Part shown: one piece after another, positions 12,444 through 47,093 of the stretch | How the letters are laid out: each line of letters opens with the position of its first letter | How positions within the stretch are numbered: the first letter of the stretch is position 1 | Assembly: GCA_048939015.1 (NCBI GenBank) | Contig: JBHLPW010000003.1 | Coordinates: 67,628-131,627 of the forward strand | Length of the DNA stretch: 64,000 nucleotides | Direction of reading: 5' to 3' | From: Promethearchaeota archaeon | Lineage (GTDB): Archaea; Asgardarchaeota; Lokiarchaeia; Sigyniarchaeales; SOKP01 | Notes under the pieces: generated by a model | Told to the model about the DNA's origin: nothing | The model's database searches: none | The model's input: the letters and a program-made list of their open reading frames with translations, nothing else | Position numbers and translations under genes: made by a program

Positions 12444-12992
12444 ATGGGAAATTCTGTAAAAAAATTTAGATTTAAAATTACTGTCATAGGGGATGGTAGA
12501 GTAGGAAAGACATCCCTTATTAAGAAATTCACTTTAGGTACTTTTAAAACAGATTATGTTGAAACAATAGGTGCTCAATTCTCTAAATATGAAAAAGAAA
12601 TTCACGGAGATAATATTCGATTACTATTTTGGGACATTGCAGGACAAAGAGAGTTTGATTTTCTTCGGCCTTCTTTCTACAAGGAAAGTAACGCAGCTGT
12701 CATAGTTTATAGTCTTGAACAAAATGAGCTTGGAGATGGAAGCTTTAGACACATAAACGATTGGGATAACGAAATTAAGAAATTTTGCGGAGATATCCCG
12801 ATTGTGGTATTTGCAAACAAAGCTGATTTAATAAATGAGAACGATCTAAATTTATCTAAAATTGAAAAAATTGTAAGAGAACATAATTTTCTCGGATATT
12901 ATATTACTTCGGCAAAAACAGGACAAGGTGTTTATAAAGCTTTTGATGATATTATTGAAAATGTATATTATAGTCTTGTAGAAACTAGTTAG
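12444..12992 (+). CDS. Rab-like small GTPase
   Basis: GDGRVGKTS, TIG, WDIAGQ, NKAD, TSAK; no C-terminal Cys. Confidence 0.93.
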   Translation: MGNSVKKFRFKITVIGDGRVGKTSLIKKFTLGTFKTDYVETIGAQFSKYEKEIHGDNIRLLFWDIAGQREFDFLRPSFYKESNAAVIVYSLEQNELGDGSFRHINDWDNEIKKFCGDIPIVVFANKADLINENDLNLSKIEKIVREHNFLGYYITSAKTGQGVYKAFDDIIENVYYSLVETS

Positions 12993-37916: not shown

Positions 37917-38290
37917 CAATATTAGATTTTATTTCTACTCCTTTTATTATTTTTAATTTACTACTTCTCGTTTTACCTTTATAATAATTTTTCAATAACT
38001 AGAATGTTAAATTTCGATCATATATCCAATATTTATTAACAATCTCAAAAACTAGAAGTTTTATTCTGGTATAAATAATTTAATATTTTGACCGTTCCAT
38101 AAAAAATTGATTAATTCGATAAACAGATAATCTTAAAAATATTGAAATTCAATAAACTATTAAAAAAAATATTTAATATTGATCGTGACAAAAAGATCTA
38201 TATTGGAATTTAAAAATCATCCAATATACATTTAAGAAATTTACTAATATACAATTTTGTAAAAGTACGAGGTGGATGTGTAAAAAGAGA

Positions 38291-40234
38291 ATGAAGAGTA
38301 ATGAAAATCATCGGATTGGATACTATGCTTGTCAATGAGGCGTAAATATACGGACCAAAGTTGATTGCGATGAGCTTGTAGAATATGTAAGCAATAGTTT
38401 TAATGATGTTGTGATTGCTAAAAAAAATGCTTTTCTTTGAACTGATAATGCACAAAATGAAATAATAGAGGATATTAGGGAAAAGAATTTAAACAGAATT
38501 GTAGCTTCTGCTTGAACTCCACGAACTCACGAGGTTATTTATCGAGGAACAATTGCTAAAACAGATTTAAATCCTTATTACTTTCAAATGGTAAATGTAC
38601 GCGAACATTGTTCTTGGTGTACAGATACTAAAGAAGAAGCCACAGAAAAAGCAAAAAAATTAGTTAAAAGTGGGATTGAAAGAGCTAAAAGATTAGAACC
38701 TGTTCCAATAAAAACAGTTCCGGTTACAAAAGCTACTTTAGTAGTTGGAGGAGGGATAGGTGGTATGAATGCTGCTCTTGATCTTGCCAATCAGGGAATT
38801 AAGGTCTATTTAGTTGATCAAAAAACTACAATTGGAGGAAGAATGTCTCAATTAGACAGAACTTTTCCTACGGATGACTGTGCTATATGAATTTGCGGAC
38901 CTAAAATGTTAGAAGTCAATCGAAATGAGAATATTGAGTTATTAACGTATAGCGAAGTAAAGAAAGTAGAAGGTTATGTTGGGAATTATACTGTAACAAT
39001 TGAAAAGAAACCACGATATACAACGGATGAGTGTAATGGATGTGGTGCATGCAGCGAAGTTTGTCCAGTATATGTAAGTAATTATTTTGATGAACATTTA
39101 GGTGCTCGAAAAGCAATCGATATTCCATTTGGTCAAGCAGTACCATTTCTATTTGATATTGATAGAGATGCGTGTATTGAGTGTTTTTCATGTGTAGATG
39201 CATGCGAATTAGATGCTATTGATTTCAGTCAAATACCTACAGATATTAATGTTGAAGTAGGTACGATTATTATAGCAACTGGTTGGGATATATATGAACC
39301 TTTTGGTGAATATGGCTACGGAGAATTCGAAAATGTAATAACTCAAGTTCAATTAGAACGTATTTTAGCCCCAAATGGACCACTTGAGGGACATGTGCAT
39401 CGACTTTCAGATGATAAGAAACCCAAAGAAATTGTATTTATACAATGCGTAGGAAGTCGGGAAACTGAGCGAACATATTGTAGTGGAGTATGTTGCATGC
39501 TTGCCTTAAAGAATGGGAGATTATTACTTGAAGAATTCCCTGATGCGCACATAACAATTTGTTATATTGATATTAGAACCCCTGAAAAAGGATTTGAAGA
39601 GTATTATGAACGTGCAAAAGATGCAGGGATTAGAATGATTCGTGGTAAAGTAGGTGAAATCTCGGAAGATCCAGAAACTAAAAACTTAAAAGTCAGGTTA
39701 TATTCAACTTTAACAGATAAAATTGTAAAAATTGATGCTGATTTAGTTGTATTGTCCACAGCGGCACTCCCTTCAAAAGGAACTGAACAAATTGTAAAGG
39801 TTTTAAATCTTGATACTAATACATATGGTTTTCTCACTGAATCCCATTTCGGACTGATGCCGCAAGAAACTAAATCAAAAGGAGTTTTTATAGCAGGATT
39901 TGCTCAAGGACCAAAAAATATTTCCTATTCCGTTTCTCAAGCAAGAGCGGCGGCTAGTAAAGTAGCTGAATTAACAGCACCGGGGCAAATTGATGTAGAA
40001 CTTATCACTGCTGAAGTAGATAGTGAATTCTGTATTTCATGTAGACGATGCGAAAAAGCATGCCCTAAAAGTGCCATTAGAATTGAAAAGGATATCGGTG
40101 CATTTATTGATGAAATAAATTGTGATGGATGTGGTATTTGTGCTACTTGTTGCCCTACTCAAGCAATTGATATTAGATATTATCGTGATCATCAATTATA
40201 TGCTGAAATTGATGGTTTATTAGGAGGTGATTAA
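38291..40234 (+). CDS. hdrA: Selenocysteine-containing heterodisulfide reductase subunit A (647 aa, 4 Sec)
   Basis: One frame with TGA at 38336, 38438, 38513, 38888 (CQUG, FLU, ASAUTPRTHE, DCAIUI), aligning with CHCG, YTC, ASCTPRTHE, DCAICI in Cys paralogs 43602 and 60604; alternative ATG 38276. Confidence 0.92.
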
Positions 40235-40240
40235 ACAGAT

Positions 40241-40702
40241 ATGGATCATACATATAATCTCATTGTTTTTGCGTGCTTAAAATGAGGATATAGTGCTGCA
40301 GATTTAGCTGGAGTTTCACGATTGAAATATACTTCCGCTGTAAAAATTATTAAAGTAAGATGCACTGGAAGAGTTGGTGTTAAACATATCCTCTATAGTA
40401 TTCGCTCGGGAGCTGATGGTGTTATGATTGTGGGATGACAACCAAATGAATGTCAATTTAAAAATGGAAATTTCACAGCTGAAAGACATGTTGAATTAGC
40501 AAATAGAATATTAGCATTGAGAGGCTTTGGAGATCAAAGAATAAATATGTATTGGTTAAGTGGAGGAGATGCTGGGAAATTTGTCGAATCTGTTGAGGAT
40601 GCCTACGAAAAATTAAAAAAACTAGGACCAAATCCACTTAATTTAGTAAAAGAACAATCAGAACTTGAAAGTAAACAAGTAATAACTACCCCTGCGGAAT
40701 GA
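40241..40702 (+). CDS. mvhD: Selenocysteine-containing MvhD/VhuD/FlpD [2Fe-2S] subunit (153 aa, 2 Sec)
   Basis: SD GGAGGTGA; MDHTYNLIVFACLKUGYSAADLAG...RCTGRV...VGUQPNEC; TGA 40283 and 40436 match Cys in CNWCSYAGADLAG and TGCHIGDC of paralog 46662. Confidence 0.92.
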
Positions 40703-40748
40703 TTCTTATAAATAAATTTTAGTTATAGGAAGACTAACCTTGCAAGGG
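40689..40748 (+). ncRNA. Eukaryote-type SECIS element
   Basis: ATGA (40699-40702), 11-nt arm TTCTTATAAAT, AAA apical loop, 11-nt arm AGTTATAGGAA, GA (40732-33); lower stem CCCTGCG / TGCAAGGG. Confidence 0.85.
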
Positions 40749-40820
40749 AAGGGGTTTTTAATTAGTATTCAATTAAAAAGTAAGATTTGTTATTAAAAGT
40801 TAATCCAAAAGGATGGAAAT

Positions 40821-42341
40821 ATGGTTCAAATTACAAATAATTTAAGTTTCAATGGGATATCTCCAAAAGAATTAATGGATGCTACCTATGCGGCGGTAGA
40901 AAACTTTCAAATTCGCGCTTTCTTTGAAGCAAAGGATGAAATTTTAGAAGCAGGGAAATATACTGAAGATGAGTTTTATGAGTTTTTAGATGCGATGATT
41001 AATGCTGAAACAGAGCGTAAATTAGTACTAAATTCCTTAAAAGGTAAGAAACCGTTGTTTTTAGATGAAATTGCAGAAATAATAAATGGGTTTTCACCAG
41101 AAAATGTAATTTGTGATGTTATTTATCTTAAAGAACAGGGTTATATTGAAGAACTTATCGAAATTAAAACTAAAACTGTTATCAAGAAAATAAAGGGAGA
41201 AGAAAAAGAAGTTGAAGAAAAAGAATATTTCTACAGGTATCAAGTAAAAGATGTTCCTGAGGATTTCATGGAACATTTTTTTGAACCAGTTTCTATTGTG
41301 TTTGATTCTGGAGTATGCTGTCAATGTGGATGGTGTTCATCAATTTGTCCTGTAAATGCTATTTCAGTGACAGCAGATACTTTGGAAATAAATGATGAAA
41401 TATGTATGAAATGTGGTTTATGTTACTCTGTTTGTCCAAGATCATTTTCGATAGAACAAGCAGGTAAGAGTATAAATAAACTTAATAAAACATTAGAGTT
41501 TTCAGAAAAAATTAATGGTTATATTAATACTTATAGTGCTAGTACCACTAAAGATAGTATTAAAAAAGTAAGACAAGATGGAGGGATAGTTACTTCACTC
41601 TGTCAATATCTCTTAGATAATAATCTTGTTGATGCGATTGTAGCAGTACAACATTCGGAAGAAAAATGGAAACCTGAACCTGTTATTGTGGATGATTTAA
41701 AAGATTTATATAAAACTGGAGGCACAAAATATGCAAACGCATCAACTTTAGCTATTATAGATAATACTAAGAAATACGATAAAATAGCTGTTGTAGGAAC
41801 TCCATGTATGATGAATGCTCTTGAAAAAGGTAGTCTTTTTCCAAGTGGAGTATCTTTTTTCAAGAATATAGAATATAAGATTGGTCTTTTTTGCATGGAA
41901 TCTTTTCCATATGGAGGAGTACTTGGGTTAATTAAAGAGCAATTTAATCAAGATTTCAATAAAGTAATAAAGATGGACATTAGTAGCGGCAAATTTATCA
42001 TTTATTTGGATAATGGAGAAGACTTAAATGTTCCACTAAAAGATGTAAAATCATATGCCCGTCGTAATTGTCATTTTTGTGAGGATTTAACAGCAGATTA
42101 TGCAGATATATCCGTTGGATCGATTGGATCTGGAAGTGGATGGTCTTCTGTTATAACTCGAAATAAGAAAGGTGAAGAAATTTTTAAGGGAGCTATTAAG
42201 GCAGGATTAATAGAATCTAAAAGTTTAAAGGATGTTAAGCCAGGACTATCCCTATTAGAAAGAATTGCTGGTACAAAGAGAAAAAATTGTAAACCAATTG
42301 ATTTAAAGAAAGAAAAAGAAAGGAGTGACAATCATAACTGA
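40821..42341 (+). CDS. FrhB-family F420-oxidoreductase beta subunit with N-terminal extension
   Basis: CCQCGWCSSICP, CMKCGLCYSVCP, QDGGIVT, VGTPC, GLFCME, CHFCED, ADISVGSIGS. Confidence 0.88.
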   Translation: MVQITNNLSFNGISPKELMDATYAAVENFQIRAFFEAKDEILEAGKYTEDEFYEFLDAMINAETERKLVLNSLKGKKPLFLDEIAEIINGFSPENVICDVIYLKEQGYIEELIEIKTKTVIKKIKGEEKEVEEKEYFYRYQVKDVPEDFMEHFFEPVSIVFDSGVCCQCGWCSSICPVNAISVTADTLEINDEICMKCGLCYSVCPRSFSIEQAGKSINKLNKTLEFSEKINGYINTYSASTTKDSIKKVRQDGGIVTSLCQYLLDNNLVDAIVAVQHSEEKWKPEPVIVDDLKDLYKTGGTKYANASTLAIIDNTKKYDKIAVVGTPCMMNALEKGSLFPSGVSFFKNIEYKIGLFCMESFPYGGVLGLIKEQFNQDFNKVIKMDISSGKFIIYLDNGEDLNVPLKDVKSYARRNCHFCEDLTADYADISVGSIGSGSGWSSVITRNKKGEEIFKGAIKAGLIESKSLKDVKPGLSLLERIAGTKRKNCKPIDLKKEKERSDNHN

Positions 42342-43602
42342 AATTGAAAAATCGAAGAAGTTAAAACCAGTTTCAGGTGACAACAATGAATATTTGAAAA
42401 AAATATTCGAGCCAGATTTAAGCAATTTGTTAAAGAAATGTTATCAGTGCGCTCGTTGCTCAGGTGTATGCCAAATCAGCAAAGTTCAAAAATTTACTCC
42501 TAGTAGAATTATTCAAACAATATTAGAAGGTTTTGAAGAGGACATAATCAATAGTGGAGTGTTATGGGACTGTTTAATGTGCAATAGTTGCCTACAACAT
42601 TGCCCTAAAGAAATTAATTTTGCTGATATTGTTAGAATTGCTAGATATAAAATGAAAATAAATGATATTCAAAATCCTGATCGTTCTATTGCTCATAAAG
42701 GAATTTATCCTTTAATGTCAGAAATGATGAGTCAAGACAATATAGAAATTGAGAGACCTTTAGATTGGGTACCAAAAGGATGTAAAATTTCAGATAAAGG
42801 AAATATTTTATACTACGTGGGATGTTTACCTTTTTTCAATTATGAATTTGAAGATTCATTTTCTATAGCGGAAAGCACCCTTAAAATTATTTGTCAATTA
42901 GAGAATGATCCAGTTGTAGTTTTGAAAGATGAAATATGCTGTGGTCACGATTTATATTGGGGCCAAGCAAAATTCGAAAGTTTTATTGAATTAGCAAAAA
43001 AAAATCTTAAACTTTTTGAGGAAACAGGAGCAAATACAATAGTTACTGCTTGTGCTGAATGTTATAGAACTTTTAAAATCGATTATTCAAAACTATTTGA
43101 AGATTTTAATGAAAAGTTTGAAGTAAAACATATAATTGAATATATCTATGATAAATGGAAGCAGGGAAAAGTTCAATTTAAAAATCCTAATGAATCTAAT
43201 GATGTTATTCCTTTTACTTATCATGATCCATGTAGATTAAGTAGATTTTTACCAAAGGATAATAAAATTGTGGAGAATGTCCGAGAAATCTTCAAATATT
43301 TGAAAACCATTGGTTATAATTTTAAAGAAATGGAGCATAATAAAGAAAATTCTTATTGCTGTGGAGTAAATTCTTGGATGAATTGTAATGAACGGTCTAA
43401 AGCTTTAAGATATAAACGTCTTTTAGAAGCTAAAGCAGTTGGGAATAAAATGATTACAGCCTGTCCAAAATGCCGAATGCATTTGAATTGTTTAAAGAAA
43501 GATTATGATGCTTTTTCTTCTATAGAAATTATAGATTTTTCAGAATTTTTAGTAGATTTGATCGTGTTAATAGAACCTGATCAAAATATTGAGGGGAAGT
43601 AA
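42325..43602 (+). CDS. HdrD-like (HdrC-HdrB type) Fe-S/CCG oxidoreductase
   Basis: CYQCARCSGVC, CLMCNSCLQHCP, CCG twice, CAEC, YHDPC, CPKC; start may be ATA 42334. Confidence 0.88.
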   Translation: MTIITEIEKSKKLKPVSGDNNEYLKKIFEPDLSNLLKKCYQCARCSGVCQISKVQKFTPSRIIQTILEGFEEDIINSGVLWDCLMCNSCLQHCPKEINFADIVRIARYKMKINDIQNPDRSIAHKGIYPLMSEMMSQDNIEIERPLDWVPKGCKISDKGNILYYVGCLPFFNYEFEDSFSIAESTLKIICQLENDPVVVLKDEICCGHDLYWGQAKFESFIELAKKNLKLFEETGANTIVTACAECYRTFKIDYSKLFEDFNEKFEVKHIIEYIYDKWKQGKVQFKNPNESNDVIPFTYHDPCRLSRFLPKDNKIVENVREIFKYLKTIGYNFKEMEHNKENSYCCGVNSWMNCNERSKALRYKRLLEAKAVGNKMITACPKCRMHLNCLKKDYDAFSSIEIIDFSEFLVDLIVLIEPDQNIEGK

Positions 43603-46600
43603 TGGAGAAAGTCGGAGCTGTCTTAGTTATTGGTGGTGGAATTGCTGGTATTCAAACATCTATAGATTTAGCAGACTCAGGTTATAAAGTATATTTAGCA
43701 GAATCTACAACTAGTATTGGGGGAGTTATGTCTCAGCTAGATAAAACATTTCCCACTAATGATTGTGCAATTTGTATACTTGCTCCGAAGTTAGTACAAA
43801 CTGGTCGACATGAAAATATAGATATTTTAATTAATTCTTCGGTTGAAAAAATTGAAGGAGTCCCTGGTAATTTTAATGTTGAGTTGACTCAAACAACACT
43901 TCGTTTGGATCAAAGTAAATGCACAGGATGTGGTTTGTGCGCTCAACAATGCCCTATAGAGGCTATTGATTTTTTTAATGAAAAACTCTCTAATAATGCT
44001 GCAATTTCTGTAAAATTCCCTCAAGCAGTTCCCTTAGTCTTCTCAATTAATAAAGAAAAATGTATAGGTTGTGGTATTTGTAGGGGAATATGTAAAGCAA
44101 AAGCTATAAATTATGATCTTGAGGATAAACTTATTAATCTCAATGTAGGTGCTATTGTACTAGCAATTGGATTTGATGAATACGATCCTACGCCTTTAAC
44201 AGAATTAGGTTATGGTAAGCATTTAAATGTAATTACTAGTATTGAGTTTGAACGTATACTTAGTGCTAGTGGTCCACATTCAGGGTTAATAATTCGTCCC
44301 TCTGATGGAATTATTCCCAAAAAAATAGCCTTTCTACATTGTATAGGATCAAGGGATAGAAAGCATAGAATTGATTACTGTTCTTCTGTATGTTGTATGT
44401 ATACTACAAAGGAAGCGGTTATTGCAAAAGAGCATATGAATATTGTAAAACCAACAATTTTTACAATGGATATAAGGGCATATGGCAAAGATTTTGATAA
44501 ATATATTGAACGAGCGAAAAATGAATATGGTGTAAGATATATTAGACGCAGAATATCTTCTATTAAAGAAATTCCAGACTCTAAAGATTTAAAGGTGTAT
44601 TATGAAAATGGACATGGGAAAATTGTTGAAGAAATATTTAATTTAGTTGTCCTTTCTGTGGGAATGCAACCTAACCGACAAGCAAATAAATTAGCACAGA
44701 AACTAAGTATCCAGTTAAATGAATATGGTTTTTGTAAAACAGGAACTTTTAACCCAGTAGAAACATCGAAACCTGGAATTTATGTGTGTGGTTCTTTCGC
44801 AACGCCTAAAGATATTCCAGAAACAGTTATTGAAGCTAGTGCTGCTGCGGGGCAAGTAAATGTTCTTTTATCAGAAGCAAGAAATACTTTAGTCTCTAAG
44901 AAGGAACTCCCTGAGGAACTAGATGTAAGTGATCAACCCCCGCGAATCGGTGTATTTATTTGTCATTGTGGTATAAATATTGGTGGGGTTGTTGATGTTC
45001 CTGCAGTAGTTGAATATGTTAAAACTTTGCCCAATGTTGCTTATGCTGAGCATAATTTATATACTTGTTCAGCTGATACTCAAACTAATATTAAAGAAAA
45101 AATCATAAAGAATCAACTTAATAGGGTTATTGTCGCATCATGTACTCCAAGGACACATGAACCTTTATTTCAAGCGACAATCAGGGAGGTTGGGTTAAAT
45201 AAATATCTTTTTGAAATGGTGAATATTCGAGATCAGTGTTCATGGGTTCATATGCATGAACCTGAAAAAGCAACAGCAAAAGCTAAAGACCTATTGCGCA
45301 TGTCAGTTGCAAAGGCTAGTCAATTGATCCCGTTGCAAGAACAAGAAATATCTGTAATAGACAAAGGTCTAATCATAGGTGGTGGTGTATCTGGAATGTC
45401 AGCAGCGTTAAATTTGGCTTCTCAAGGATATGAAGTGTTCTTAATTGAAAAAGAAGATTCACTAGGTGGTTTCGCTAAAAATATTTTTCAAACCCTTGAA
45501 AATGACAATGTTCAAGAATTTCTTGAAAACCTAATTAATAAAGTTGAAAATAATCAACTAATCCAGGTGTTTAAAAACACTGAAATCAAATCTATATCCG
45601 GATACATTGGAAATTTTTCTACAAATATAACTTATGGCAATAATGGTAAAAGTATTGATTTAGATCATGGGATAATCATCGTAGCCACTGGTGCAAAAGA
45701 ATATCAGCCAAAAGAATATAGTTACAGAAAAGATGAAAGAATTATATTACAGACTGAGTTTGAAAAAGTTCTATTTACTACTGACAAGATCAAAGGATTA
45801 AAATCAATAGTAATGATCCAATGTGTAGGATCGAGAAATGAAGATCATCCTTATTGTAGCAGAATTTGCTGCTCAGAAGCAATAAAAAATGCCTTAAAAG
45901 CAAAAGAAATAAACCCTGAAATAGAAATAGTCATCCTATATCGTGATATTCGAACATATGGTTTTAAAGAAAAATACTACAACTTAGCACGAGATAATAA
46001 GATAATATTTCTTAGATTCGATGAATCTAAACCCCCAGAATTAAAAATTAAAAATAAAAGGTTAACAATTATAACAAATAATCCAGATTTAGGGAAACTT
46101 GAAATAAATCCTGATTTAGTTGTATTAAGTACAGGACTCATAGCACCTATAAAAGAAAATGAGGAACTTGCTAAAATGTTAAAAGTTCCTCTTAATGAAG
46201 ACAAATTCTTTTTAGAAGCTCATGTTAAATTGAGACCAATTGATTTTGCTACGGATGGCATATATTTATGTGGAACTGCTCATTCACCAAAAGATCTTCG
46301 AGAATCAATAGCACAATCAAATGGAGCTGCTGCTCAAGCTGTTAAAATTTTAAGTGCTGAAAAACTCGTCACATCAGGACTTGTAGCAGTTGTAATTGAA
46401 GAAAATTGCATTGGATGTGGAAGCTGTATGGAAGTCTGTCAATTTAATGCTATTGAATTAATAGAGAAAGAAAAAACATTCGAAGATATTACAATGACTA
46501 TAAGAAAATCTCATGTAAATCCTGCACTCTGTAAAGGTTGTGGTACATGTGGTGCGCAATGTCCTAATTCAACAATTGTTATAAAACATTTTGGATTTGA

Positions 46601-46643
46601 GCAAATCCATGCAATGATATCGGCACTTCTAGTCCAAACCTAA
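43602..46643 (+). CDS. hdrA: Large (two-module) heterodisulfide reductase subunit A
   Basis: GGGIAG, LDKTFPTNDCAIC, ferredoxin motifs, CSSVCCM, CHCG, CTPRTHE, second FAD module. Confidence 0.93.
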   Translation: MEKVGAVLVIGGGIAGIQTSIDLADSGYKVYLAESTTSIGGVMSQLDKTFPTNDCAICILAPKLVQTGRHENIDILINSSVEKIEGVPGNFNVELTQTTLRLDQSKCTGCGLCAQQCPIEAIDFFNEKLSNNAAISVKFPQAVPLVFSINKEKCIGCGICRGICKAKAINYDLEDKLINLNVGAIVLAIGFDEYDPTPLTELGYGKHLNVITSIEFERILSASGPHSGLIIRPSDGIIPKKIAFLHCIGSRDRKHRIDYCSSVCCMYTTKEAVIAKEHMNIVKPTIFTMDIRAYGKDFDKYIERAKNEYGVRYIRRRISSIKEIPDSKDLKVYYENGHGKIVEEIFNLVVLSVGMQPNRQANKLAQKLSIQLNEYGFCKTGTFNPVETSKPGIYVCGSFATPKDIPETVIEASAAAGQVNVLLSEARNTLVSKKELPEELDVSDQPPRIGVFICHCGINIGGVVDVPAVVEYVKTLPNVAYAEHNLYTCSADTQTNIKEKIIKNQLNRVIVASCTPRTHEPLFQATIREVGLNKYLFEMVNIRDQCSWVHMHEPEKATAKAKDLLRMSVAKASQLIPLQEQEISVIDKGLIIGGGVSGMSAALNLASQGYEVFLIEKEDSLGGFAKNIFQTLENDNVQEFLENLINKVENNQLIQVFKNTEIKSISGYIGNFSTNITYGNNGKSIDLDHGIIIVATGAKEYQPKEYSYRKDERIILQTEFEKVLFTTDKIKGLKSIVMIQCVGSRNEDHPYCSRICCSEAIKNALKAKEINPEIEIVILYRDIRTYGFKEKYYNLARDNKIIFLRFDESKPPELKIKNKRLTIITNNPDLGKLEINPDLVVLSTGLIAPIKENEELAKMLKVPLNEDKFFLEAHVKLRPIDFATDGIYLCGTAHSPKDLRESIAQSNGAAAQAVKILSAEKLVTSGLVAVVIEENCIGCGSCMEVCQFNAIELIEKEKTFEDITMTIRKSHVNPALCKGCGTCGAQCPNSTIVIKHFGFEQIHAMISALLVQT

Positions 46644-46661
46644 ATTATAAGGTATTAAATT

Positions 46662-47093
46662 ATGTCTAAGTCAAAAAAGAAAGTAAGTAAAAAAGATTTT
46701 CACCCAAACATATTGTGTTTTTGTTGTAATTGGTGTAGTTATGCTGGGGCAGATTTAGCTGGTGTATCACGTTTTCAATATCCCTCTACCATTAGAATTG
46801 TACGGGTAATGTGTTCTGGTCGAGTAGACCCCGCTTTTATTTTAGAGGCGTTTAAAGATGGTATTGATGGTGTCATTGTGACAGGGTGTCATATTGGTGA
46901 TTGTCACTATCTGAAAGGCAATGAGTTCGCTAGAGATAGATTTGAACGTTTTAAAGAAATACTAAAAATATTTCATCTTGATAAAAGATTTAGACTTGAA
47001 TGGGTAAGTGCATCTGAAGGAAAACGATTTGCTGAAGTTATTACTGAATTTACTAATCAAATTAAAAAATTAGGACCATTACAATCAATCTAA
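46662..47093 (+). CDS. mvhD: MvhD/FlpD [2Fe-2S] subunit (Cys form)
   Basis: CCNWCSYAGADLAG, VMCSGRV, GCHIGDCHY, WVSASEG. Confidence 0.95.
   Translation: MSKSKKKVSKKDFHPNILCFCCNWCSYAGADLAGVSRFQYPSTIRIVRVMCSGRVDPAFILEAFKDGIDGVIVTGCHIGDCHYLKGNEFARDRFERFKEILKIFHLDKRFRLEWVSASEGKRFAEVITEFTNQIKKLGPLQSI

Follow-up and report, generated by a model that had tools for sequence, protein, structure and literature searches.

A lokiSECIS that closes an hdrA-vhuD gene pair in a Promethearchaeota genome: three-helix structure and overlap with the vhuD stop codon

Described SECIS elements and the hdrA-vhuD gene pair

The closest described counterparts of the element reported here are the lokiSECIS of Asgard archaea. 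In the study of Mariotti 2016 (PMC4989117) one lokiSECIS was common to HdrA and VhuD, was found only after VhuD and served up to six UGAs over ~2 kb. Its stem has 9 bp and its loop 11 nt, of which the first five bases are mostly A and the last is G, usually with A before it, and GA follows the stem; the stem is shorter than the eukaryotic one, and SBP2 was not found in Loki. The same study reported that HdrA always has a UAA or UAG stop, that the stops of VhuD are 'diverse, including UGA', and that the AUGA can double as stop, an overlap named explicitly for VhuU.1. Huang 2024 (PMC11227280) described a type I eSECIS-like structure of Asgard hdrA/frhD genes, modelled with a stem of 7-15 bp that has no more than 2 mismatches and with a loop of 8-20 nt, and stated generally that UGA stops often overlap the AUGA. 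The lokiSECIS of both papers rests on computational prediction, a 2026 review repeats the same model, and the published models take in core, upper stem and loop. The main text of PMC4989117 and PMC11227280 describes no outer helix formed with the last vhuD codons, no mini-hairpin and no repeated switching of the stop.

Two other systems are useful for comparison. The eukaryotic SECIS (Rfam SECIS_1), whose kink-turn core is bound by SBP2, has in common with our element the AUGA...GA quartet, the unpaired A's that open the loop, the 3' location and the action at a distance on several UGAs; our element differs in its 9-bp upper stem, in giving no Rfam SECIS match at E 10, in overlapping coding sequence and in the two cistrons it would serve. 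The VhuD SECIS of Methanococcales and Methanopyrus (GAA_A type with an extra stem, AUGA and GAC; PMC4989117) belongs to the same gene and lies in the same place, right after vhuD, likewise has the AUGA opposite the GAC between an outer and a main stem and serves two Sec codons, but its GAA_A bulge and its G/C-only upper stem are both absent from our element. The hdrA of Methanococcales has its own euryarchaeal SECIS (PMC11227280), and that of Loki hdrA has degenerated (PMC4989117).

The stretch of DNA that we analyzed, called the window here, is 64,000 nucleotides long, has a G+C content of ~30% and contains an hdrA-vhuD pair followed by one element (Table 1). This element resembles the lokiSECIS in its AUGA, 9-bp stem, 11-nt A...AG loop, GA(C) and single copy after vhuD, and the gene pair resembles the published ones in the UAA/UAG class of its hdrA stop, in its six UGAs over ~2 kb and in a UGA stop that lies on the AUGA. 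We found no essential difference, and the agreement held for every lokiSECIS property of structure, position and host Sec machinery that we tested. Judged from the sequence and its relatives, it is very probable that an Asgard lokiSECIS of the eukaryote-like type I ends the hdrA-vhuD bicistronic message, with three helices, a U tract and a core UGA that is the stop of vhuD, and that it is the sole Sec signal for four UGAs in hdrA and two in vhuD.

Table 1. Positions of the gene pair, its Sec codons and the parts of the SECIS, numbered from the first nucleotide of the window
Feature	Position	Strand	Description
hdrA	38291-40234	+	647 aa; ATG at 38291, stop TAA 40232-40234
hdrA Sec codons 16, 50, 75, 200	38336-38338, 38438-38440, 38513-38515, 38888-38890	+	in-frame TGA in the translation
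Shine-Dalgarno-like site GGAGGTGA, putative for vhuD	40223-40230	+	read from sequence, within the end of hdrA; predicted function
vhuD (= mvhD / frhD; FlpD family)	40241-40702	+	153 aa; Pfam FlpD E 2.7e-41
vhuD Sec codons 15, 66	40283-40285, 40436-40438	+	in-frame TGA; both align to Sec (X) of 9sfi_K
Whole SECIS, three-helix structure	40688-40755	+	covariance model R1, 105 bits
Helix I (outer), 5' strand ACCCCU	40688-40693	+	vhuD codons 150-151 (Thr-Pro); pairs with 40750-40755
AUGA core	40699-40702	+	UGA part is the vhuD stop; columns invariant in 63 loci
Helix II	40703-40731	+	9 bp, 40703-40711 (UUCUUAUAA) with 40723-40731 (UUAUAGGAA); apical loop between
Apical loop AUAAAUUUUAG	40712-40722	+	11 nt; A-rich start, AG end; AAA and final G are invariant columns
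GA of the non-Watson-Crick quartet, then conserved C	40732-40734 (GA 40732-40733)	+	GA or AA in 63/63 loci; C nearly invariant
Mini-hairpin CCUU-GCA-AGGG	40738-40748	+	3' strand, between core and helix I; 4 pairs
Helix I, 3' strand AGGGGU	40750-40755	+	partner of ACCCCU
U5 tract	40755-40759	+	right after helix I; read from sequence; possible transcript end

The preliminary description of this locus had counted six in-frame UGAs in two cistrons separated by 6 nt and had put the first Sec codon about 2360 nt upstream, and these observations agree with ours: the spacer is 6 nt, the first Sec codon, in hdrA, lies 2363 nt upstream of the AUGA, the six UGAs span 263-2363 nt upstream, and all of them, four in hdrA and two in vhuD, fall on Cys or Sec positions of solved homologs. 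The translation of hdrA, on which Pfam was also run, matches the solved HdrA chain 9sfi_A with an E value of 2e-200; U16, U50 and U75 align to Cys of that chain, and U200 aligns to a residue printed as X, which is the Sec of the crystal chain. The hdrA stop, scored in 62 orthologous loci, is TAA in 51, TAG in 11 and TGA in none. The genome carries three pairs of hdrA and vhuD, in which the Sec codons number six, five and four, and each pair has one element, located after vhuD. In the same run of genes (window 43602-47093) lie another HdrA-like gene, of 1013 aa, and a second MvhD, without a SECIS match; the second MvhD has Cys at both Sec positions (..CNWCSY.., ..TGCHIGDC..), so that Sec and Cys versions adjoin.

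The assembly that contains the window is a Promethearchaeota (Loki) MAG of 4.86 Mb in 125 contigs, and most of the Sec machinery is present in it. A tRNA-Sec scores 61 bits, above the Rfam cut-off (contig C77:15344-15432), SepSecS lies 230 bp downstream of it (C77:15659-16816), and a SelB-like GTPase with 236 bits is found on the same contig, the three forming a Sec machinery cluster at C77:10444-16816. The bacterial selB model TIGR00475 scores just below its cut-off in this genome, there are two selD genes with one in-frame TGA each, and a search of the assembly for PSTK (TIGR03574) gave no convincing match, its 30 bits falling short of the cut-off of 290. We also weighed a genome-wide reassignment of TGA and rejected it, since TGA is the ordinary stop of 13.6% of the long ORFs and the internal UGAs align to Cys or Sec.

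Structure and covariation of the element

The orthologous loci used for comparison came from a VhuD search of 400 genomes of the phylum and a scan of public genomes, which together gave 63 distinct loci; the VhuD relatives in public genomes belong nearly all to Promethearchaeota or Promethearchaeia, as Lokiarchaeota-type MAGs. The element is present at the end of vhuD in 63 of the 63 loci, 0-17 nt from the stop. A covariance model built from these loci and run with filters off matched the window at 105 bits (E 4e-22), the next-best match in the window having 16.8 bits (E 0.45) on the other strand, and the model found exactly one match in each of the 63 loci. Independent metagenome contigs, from another study, have identical letters at every TGA and across the element. 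Among public runs, none of RNA was listed as containing the locus.

The comparison of the 63 loci supports the earlier reading of this sequence as a eukaryote-like SECIS of the AUGA/AA/GA pattern, in which the AUGA, the strand UUCUUAUAA, the loop AUAAAUUUUAG, the strand UUAUAGGAA and the GA follow one another. The extent given to it at that time, 40689-40748, is too short, as the element runs to 40755, and the 11-bp upper stem was not upheld. The conserved stem, helix II, has 9 bp, of which 9/9 are formed with one G-U among them, and closes a loop of 11 nt; the further A.G mismatch and U-A pair drawn at the time are not kept in the orthologs, the loops of which are ACAAAUUCUAG, AAAAAUUCUAG and others.

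Covariation was examined in two alignments. The realignment of 68 sequences based on the covariance model has 92.7% of its cells paired and changes on both sides in 18 of 19 pairs, values reached in 0 of 500 shuffles, with the reservation that a model-fitted alignment leans towards the stated structure and that the outer helix and the mini-hairpin needed both the stated structure and the realignment. A plain MAFFT alignment beat 500 of 500 shuffles on four of five measures, as well as every slid control, and on the fifth measure (pair types) 9 of 500 shuffles did as well. RNAalifold run on the MAFFT alignment recovered helix II alone because the lengths of the 3' spacer vary. By helix, changes on both sides were found in 6/6 pairs of helix I (93% of cells paired), where relatives have ACUCCU/AGGAGU, CUCCC/GGGAG or CCUCU/AGAGG, in 8/9 pairs of helix II (95% of cells paired) and in 4/4 pairs of the mini-hairpin (87% of cells paired), which has 3-4 bp across the loci and a third pair that occurs as U-A, U-G, C-G and A-U.

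Single-sequence measures would be compatible with a chance match of the motif, an explanation that we regard as having virtually no prospect of being right. When at least 8 of the 9 pairs are required, the bare motif has 6 matches in the real genome against 2-7 in each Markov-shuffled genome, and the fold is not stabler than those of shuffled sequences (z of 0.05 and -0.72), so that its energy is not exceptional. Because the bare pattern is this common by chance, the reality of the element rests on its position and on the covariation in the 63 loci. The motif falls precisely where a gene pair with six Cys-aligned UGAs ends, and all 63 orthologous loci have the element with compensatory changes in every helix, a pattern by which chance is refuted. 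The covariation-supported structure has an energy of -14.0 kcal/mol against -15.7 for the MFE fold, in which the outer pairing is unlike the one that the covariation supports.

The arrangement of three helices recalls the k-junction (PMC4005666, PMC10573300), in which a kink turn bears a third helix on its non-bulged strand. The topology alone fits, the mini-hairpin branching from the strand that faces the AUGA side, at a point flanked by the G.A pairs and the outer helix, and our element has a 5-nt 5' loop plus AU where the k-junction has a 3-nt bulge; we use the likeness as a lead and not as a claim of membership. It enters a wider proposal that we consider unlikely to be correct as a whole. 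According to it, the working unit would be the 68-nt three-way k-junction-like structure (40688-40755) and not the published 35-nt hairpin, with a 5' half that doubles as the VhuD tail and a 3' end that doubles as the transcript end; the mini-hairpin would help to form the platform to which a putative SECIS-binding protein binds (for example of the L7Ae family, replacing the missing SBP2), and every terminating ribosome would reset the fold, so that Sec decoding upstream would be tied to the translation of the last cistron.

Transcription of archaea terminates at oligo-T tracts. The U5 tract is thus a possible terminator; the T5 is retained in most loci of the window's own genus and is shorter in others. 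A frhB-like gene with a TGA stop lies directly downstream of the SECIS (window 40821-42341). Between this gene and the U5 tract there is an AT-rich block at ~40760-40790 that is conserved in the genus and may be the promoter of the frhB-like gene. A bicistronic transcript that would end at the SECIS fits both the U5 tract and the downstream layout.

The vhuD stop codon and the UGA of the core

The TGA of the AUGA core was described before as the in-frame terminator of mvhD, and the TGA at 40700-40702, codon 154, is indeed the first in-frame stop of vhuD. The codons after it are TTC TTA TAA, the TAA (40709-40711) standing where a backup stop had been proposed. This TAA is merely part of the stem strand UUCUUAUAA and is lost in locus L028, where a compensatory stem change turns it into ...ACAA and the frame continues for 21 codons.

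How the overlap of stop and core behaves in orthologs had been left as a point to check. In 46 of the 63 loci the first in-frame vhuD stop is the core UGA, and a clade of 31 centred on the genus of the window is among them, although the loci are close relatives and counts such as this one are not independent; in others the stop lies upstream of the core, as a UAG at 5 nt (8/63) or as a UAA at 16-17 nt (7/63). In a tree of VhuD from which the tail was left out, the stop state changes at least 8 times, of which the starred branches (>=95% SH-aLRT) force only 2, and the sister pairs L049/L052 (a 1-nt deletion) and L060/L061 are unlike in their stop. Because the state has switched repeatedly and sister sequences differ, the overlap is common but interchangeable with stops 5-17 nt upstream, and dispensable. 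The loci with a stop 16-17 nt upstream keep the letters ACU-ACU-CCC untranslated, and the conserved Thr-Thr-Pro tail of VhuD would therefore reflect the RNA and not the protein; this is evidence that RNA dictates the Thr-Pro near the C-terminus of VhuD.

The codon in the core could instead be read as Sec, giving a VhuD that ends in ...TTPAE-U-FL at the TAA at 40709. In most loci an in-frame TAA or TAG does stand two codons later, and UGA is decoded as Sec elsewhere in the genome. We nevertheless find this very unlikely, as the SECIS could not fold under a ribosome at that codon, which is the minimal-distance argument of PMC4989117, and the two-residue tail varies with the covariation of the stem (FL, LL, IL, YL, VL, FS), or runs on for 21 residues in L028 once the stem change has removed the TAA. 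A further 15 of the 63 relatives have no such tail, their stop being a UAG or UAA upstream. The homology of VhuD to the solved VhuD 9sfi_K stops at residue 134, which places codon 154 in a tail that is not conserved. We prefer termination at codon 154, and the probable geometry can be given from the usual extent of the ribosome footprint: a ribosome with codon 154 in its A site would enclose the strand of helix I, with the 5' arm of helix II lying in the entry channel. Since the SECIS would be unfolded by this ribosome, the core UGA would be read as a stop.

The same geometry lies behind the proposal that termination on the core UGA melts the SECIS, that the flux of ribosomes through vhuD thereby throttles Sec decoding upstream, and that the overlap was selected for this feedback. 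Melting would be unavoidable with a stop inside the element and a coding helix I, and the distance of 0-17 nt between element and stop holds for all 63 loci. Selection of the overlap itself is another matter: loci with a UAG or UAA upstream would be melted equally, so that the arrangement with the core UGA is not singled out, and the state has switched at least 8 times (with 2 forced by starred branches) and differs between sisters. Because melting would be equal in the UAG and UAA variants, with the ribosome covering the element in each, the overlap carries no special evidence for feedback, and the weight that the preliminary description had placed on it for this purpose was not borne out. 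We consider selection for such a feedback quite improbable.

One signal for two genes, and its meaning

Whether hdrA has a Sec signal of its own had been singled out earlier as the observation that would count against a shared element, no other SECIS having been seen. The covariance model gave no second SECIS in the window or in any orthologous locus, the 105 bits of the element standing against 16.8 bits for the next match. Rfam found no SECIS family at the gathering score in the window, nor in 38000-41000 at E values up to 10, the two matches obtained being due to chance. A pattern scan of 38200-40900 for the euryarchaeal GAA_A SECIS found a single A/U-rich match, located within hdrA, where shuffled sequences had 2 on average, and zero matches when three G/C pairs were required. 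Bacterial-type hairpins were looked for in the 65 nt after each of the six UGAs and none was found, with z values of -0.43 to +0.99 against shuffles.

A separate, undetected signal for the hdrA UGAs, with the element after vhuD acting for vhuD only, has in its favor that a reach of 2.3 kb across a cistron boundary is without experimental precedent and that the models used find only known kinds of SECIS. It is nonetheless highly improbable in our estimate: the covariance model leaves no second candidate, the GAA_A-type matches are not above chance, no local hairpins follow the UGAs, the RNAz scans of PMC4989117 likewise found none, and in most loci the two genes, 1-6 nt apart, stand too close for a signal to fit between them. 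The comparison thus supports the element at the end of vhuD as the probable sole SECIS of the bicistron. We infer, as did PMC4989117 and PMC11227280, that one element recodes all six UGAs.

In the mechanism that we propose, the lokiSECIS would fold at the 3' end of the message and presumably recruit the Sec-specific elongation factor through its kink-turn core (AUGA...GA). The recruited factor would then act on the UGAs 263-2363 nt upstream, in both cistrons, and Sec would be inserted at the six codons while termination would take place at the core UGA. The 5' half of the SECIS would be translated as the last vhuD codons and its 3' end would run into the U tract, which would set the boundary of the transcript. 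The TGA stop of the frhB-like gene, if that gene is on a shared transcript, bears on whether the lokiSECIS acts only on upstream codons.

Matches to elements of this kind were also noted elsewhere in the same genome. On contig C12 (~165175-165525, minus strand; L085:1577-1927, minus) there is an ORF of ~117-165 aa with two adjacent in-frame TGAs (..VVHAD-U-U-ADVM..) that is followed by a lokiSECIS-type element of 39.8 bits and has no Pfam match. Relatives that keep both TGAs were found in 116 of the 135 genomes of the family, and the ORF is unlike the published PrxL (U-x-x-U, no other Cys); it may represent a selenoprotein family with a vicinal Sec-Sec, not listed in PMC4989117 or PMC11227280. 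On contig C121 (~12650-12900, plus strand; L082:1261-1509, plus) an ORF of 82 aa with one predicted membrane helix, a GGGG-U-GC motif and no Pfam match has a perfect lokiSECIS 15 nt after its TAA (9/9 pairs, 48.5 bits) and is a candidate small selenoprotein. A lokiSECIS-like match of 41.5 bits at C13:22345-22441 (minus strand; L084) has no convincing selenoprotein ORF upstream on its strand and may be spurious, an orphan element, or the mark of a small gene (vhuU, for instance) that was overlooked.

The eukaryote-like shape, the sharing of one element by two genes with six UGAs and the overlap with the stop were already published in 2016 and 2024, and the locus described here is one more instance of the lokiSECIS with small structural and evolutionary additions. 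These are the covariation-backed extension of the structure, namely an outer helix that lies in coding sequence and a mini-hairpin, the correction of the stem from 11 to 9 bp, and the interchangeability of the stop, which argues against a special function of the overlap. The phenomenon to which they belong remains a remarkable one, in which, in the archaea that stand closest to the eukaryotes, one RNA signal with a eukaryote-like kink-turn core would act over 2.3 kb on six stop codons of two genes.
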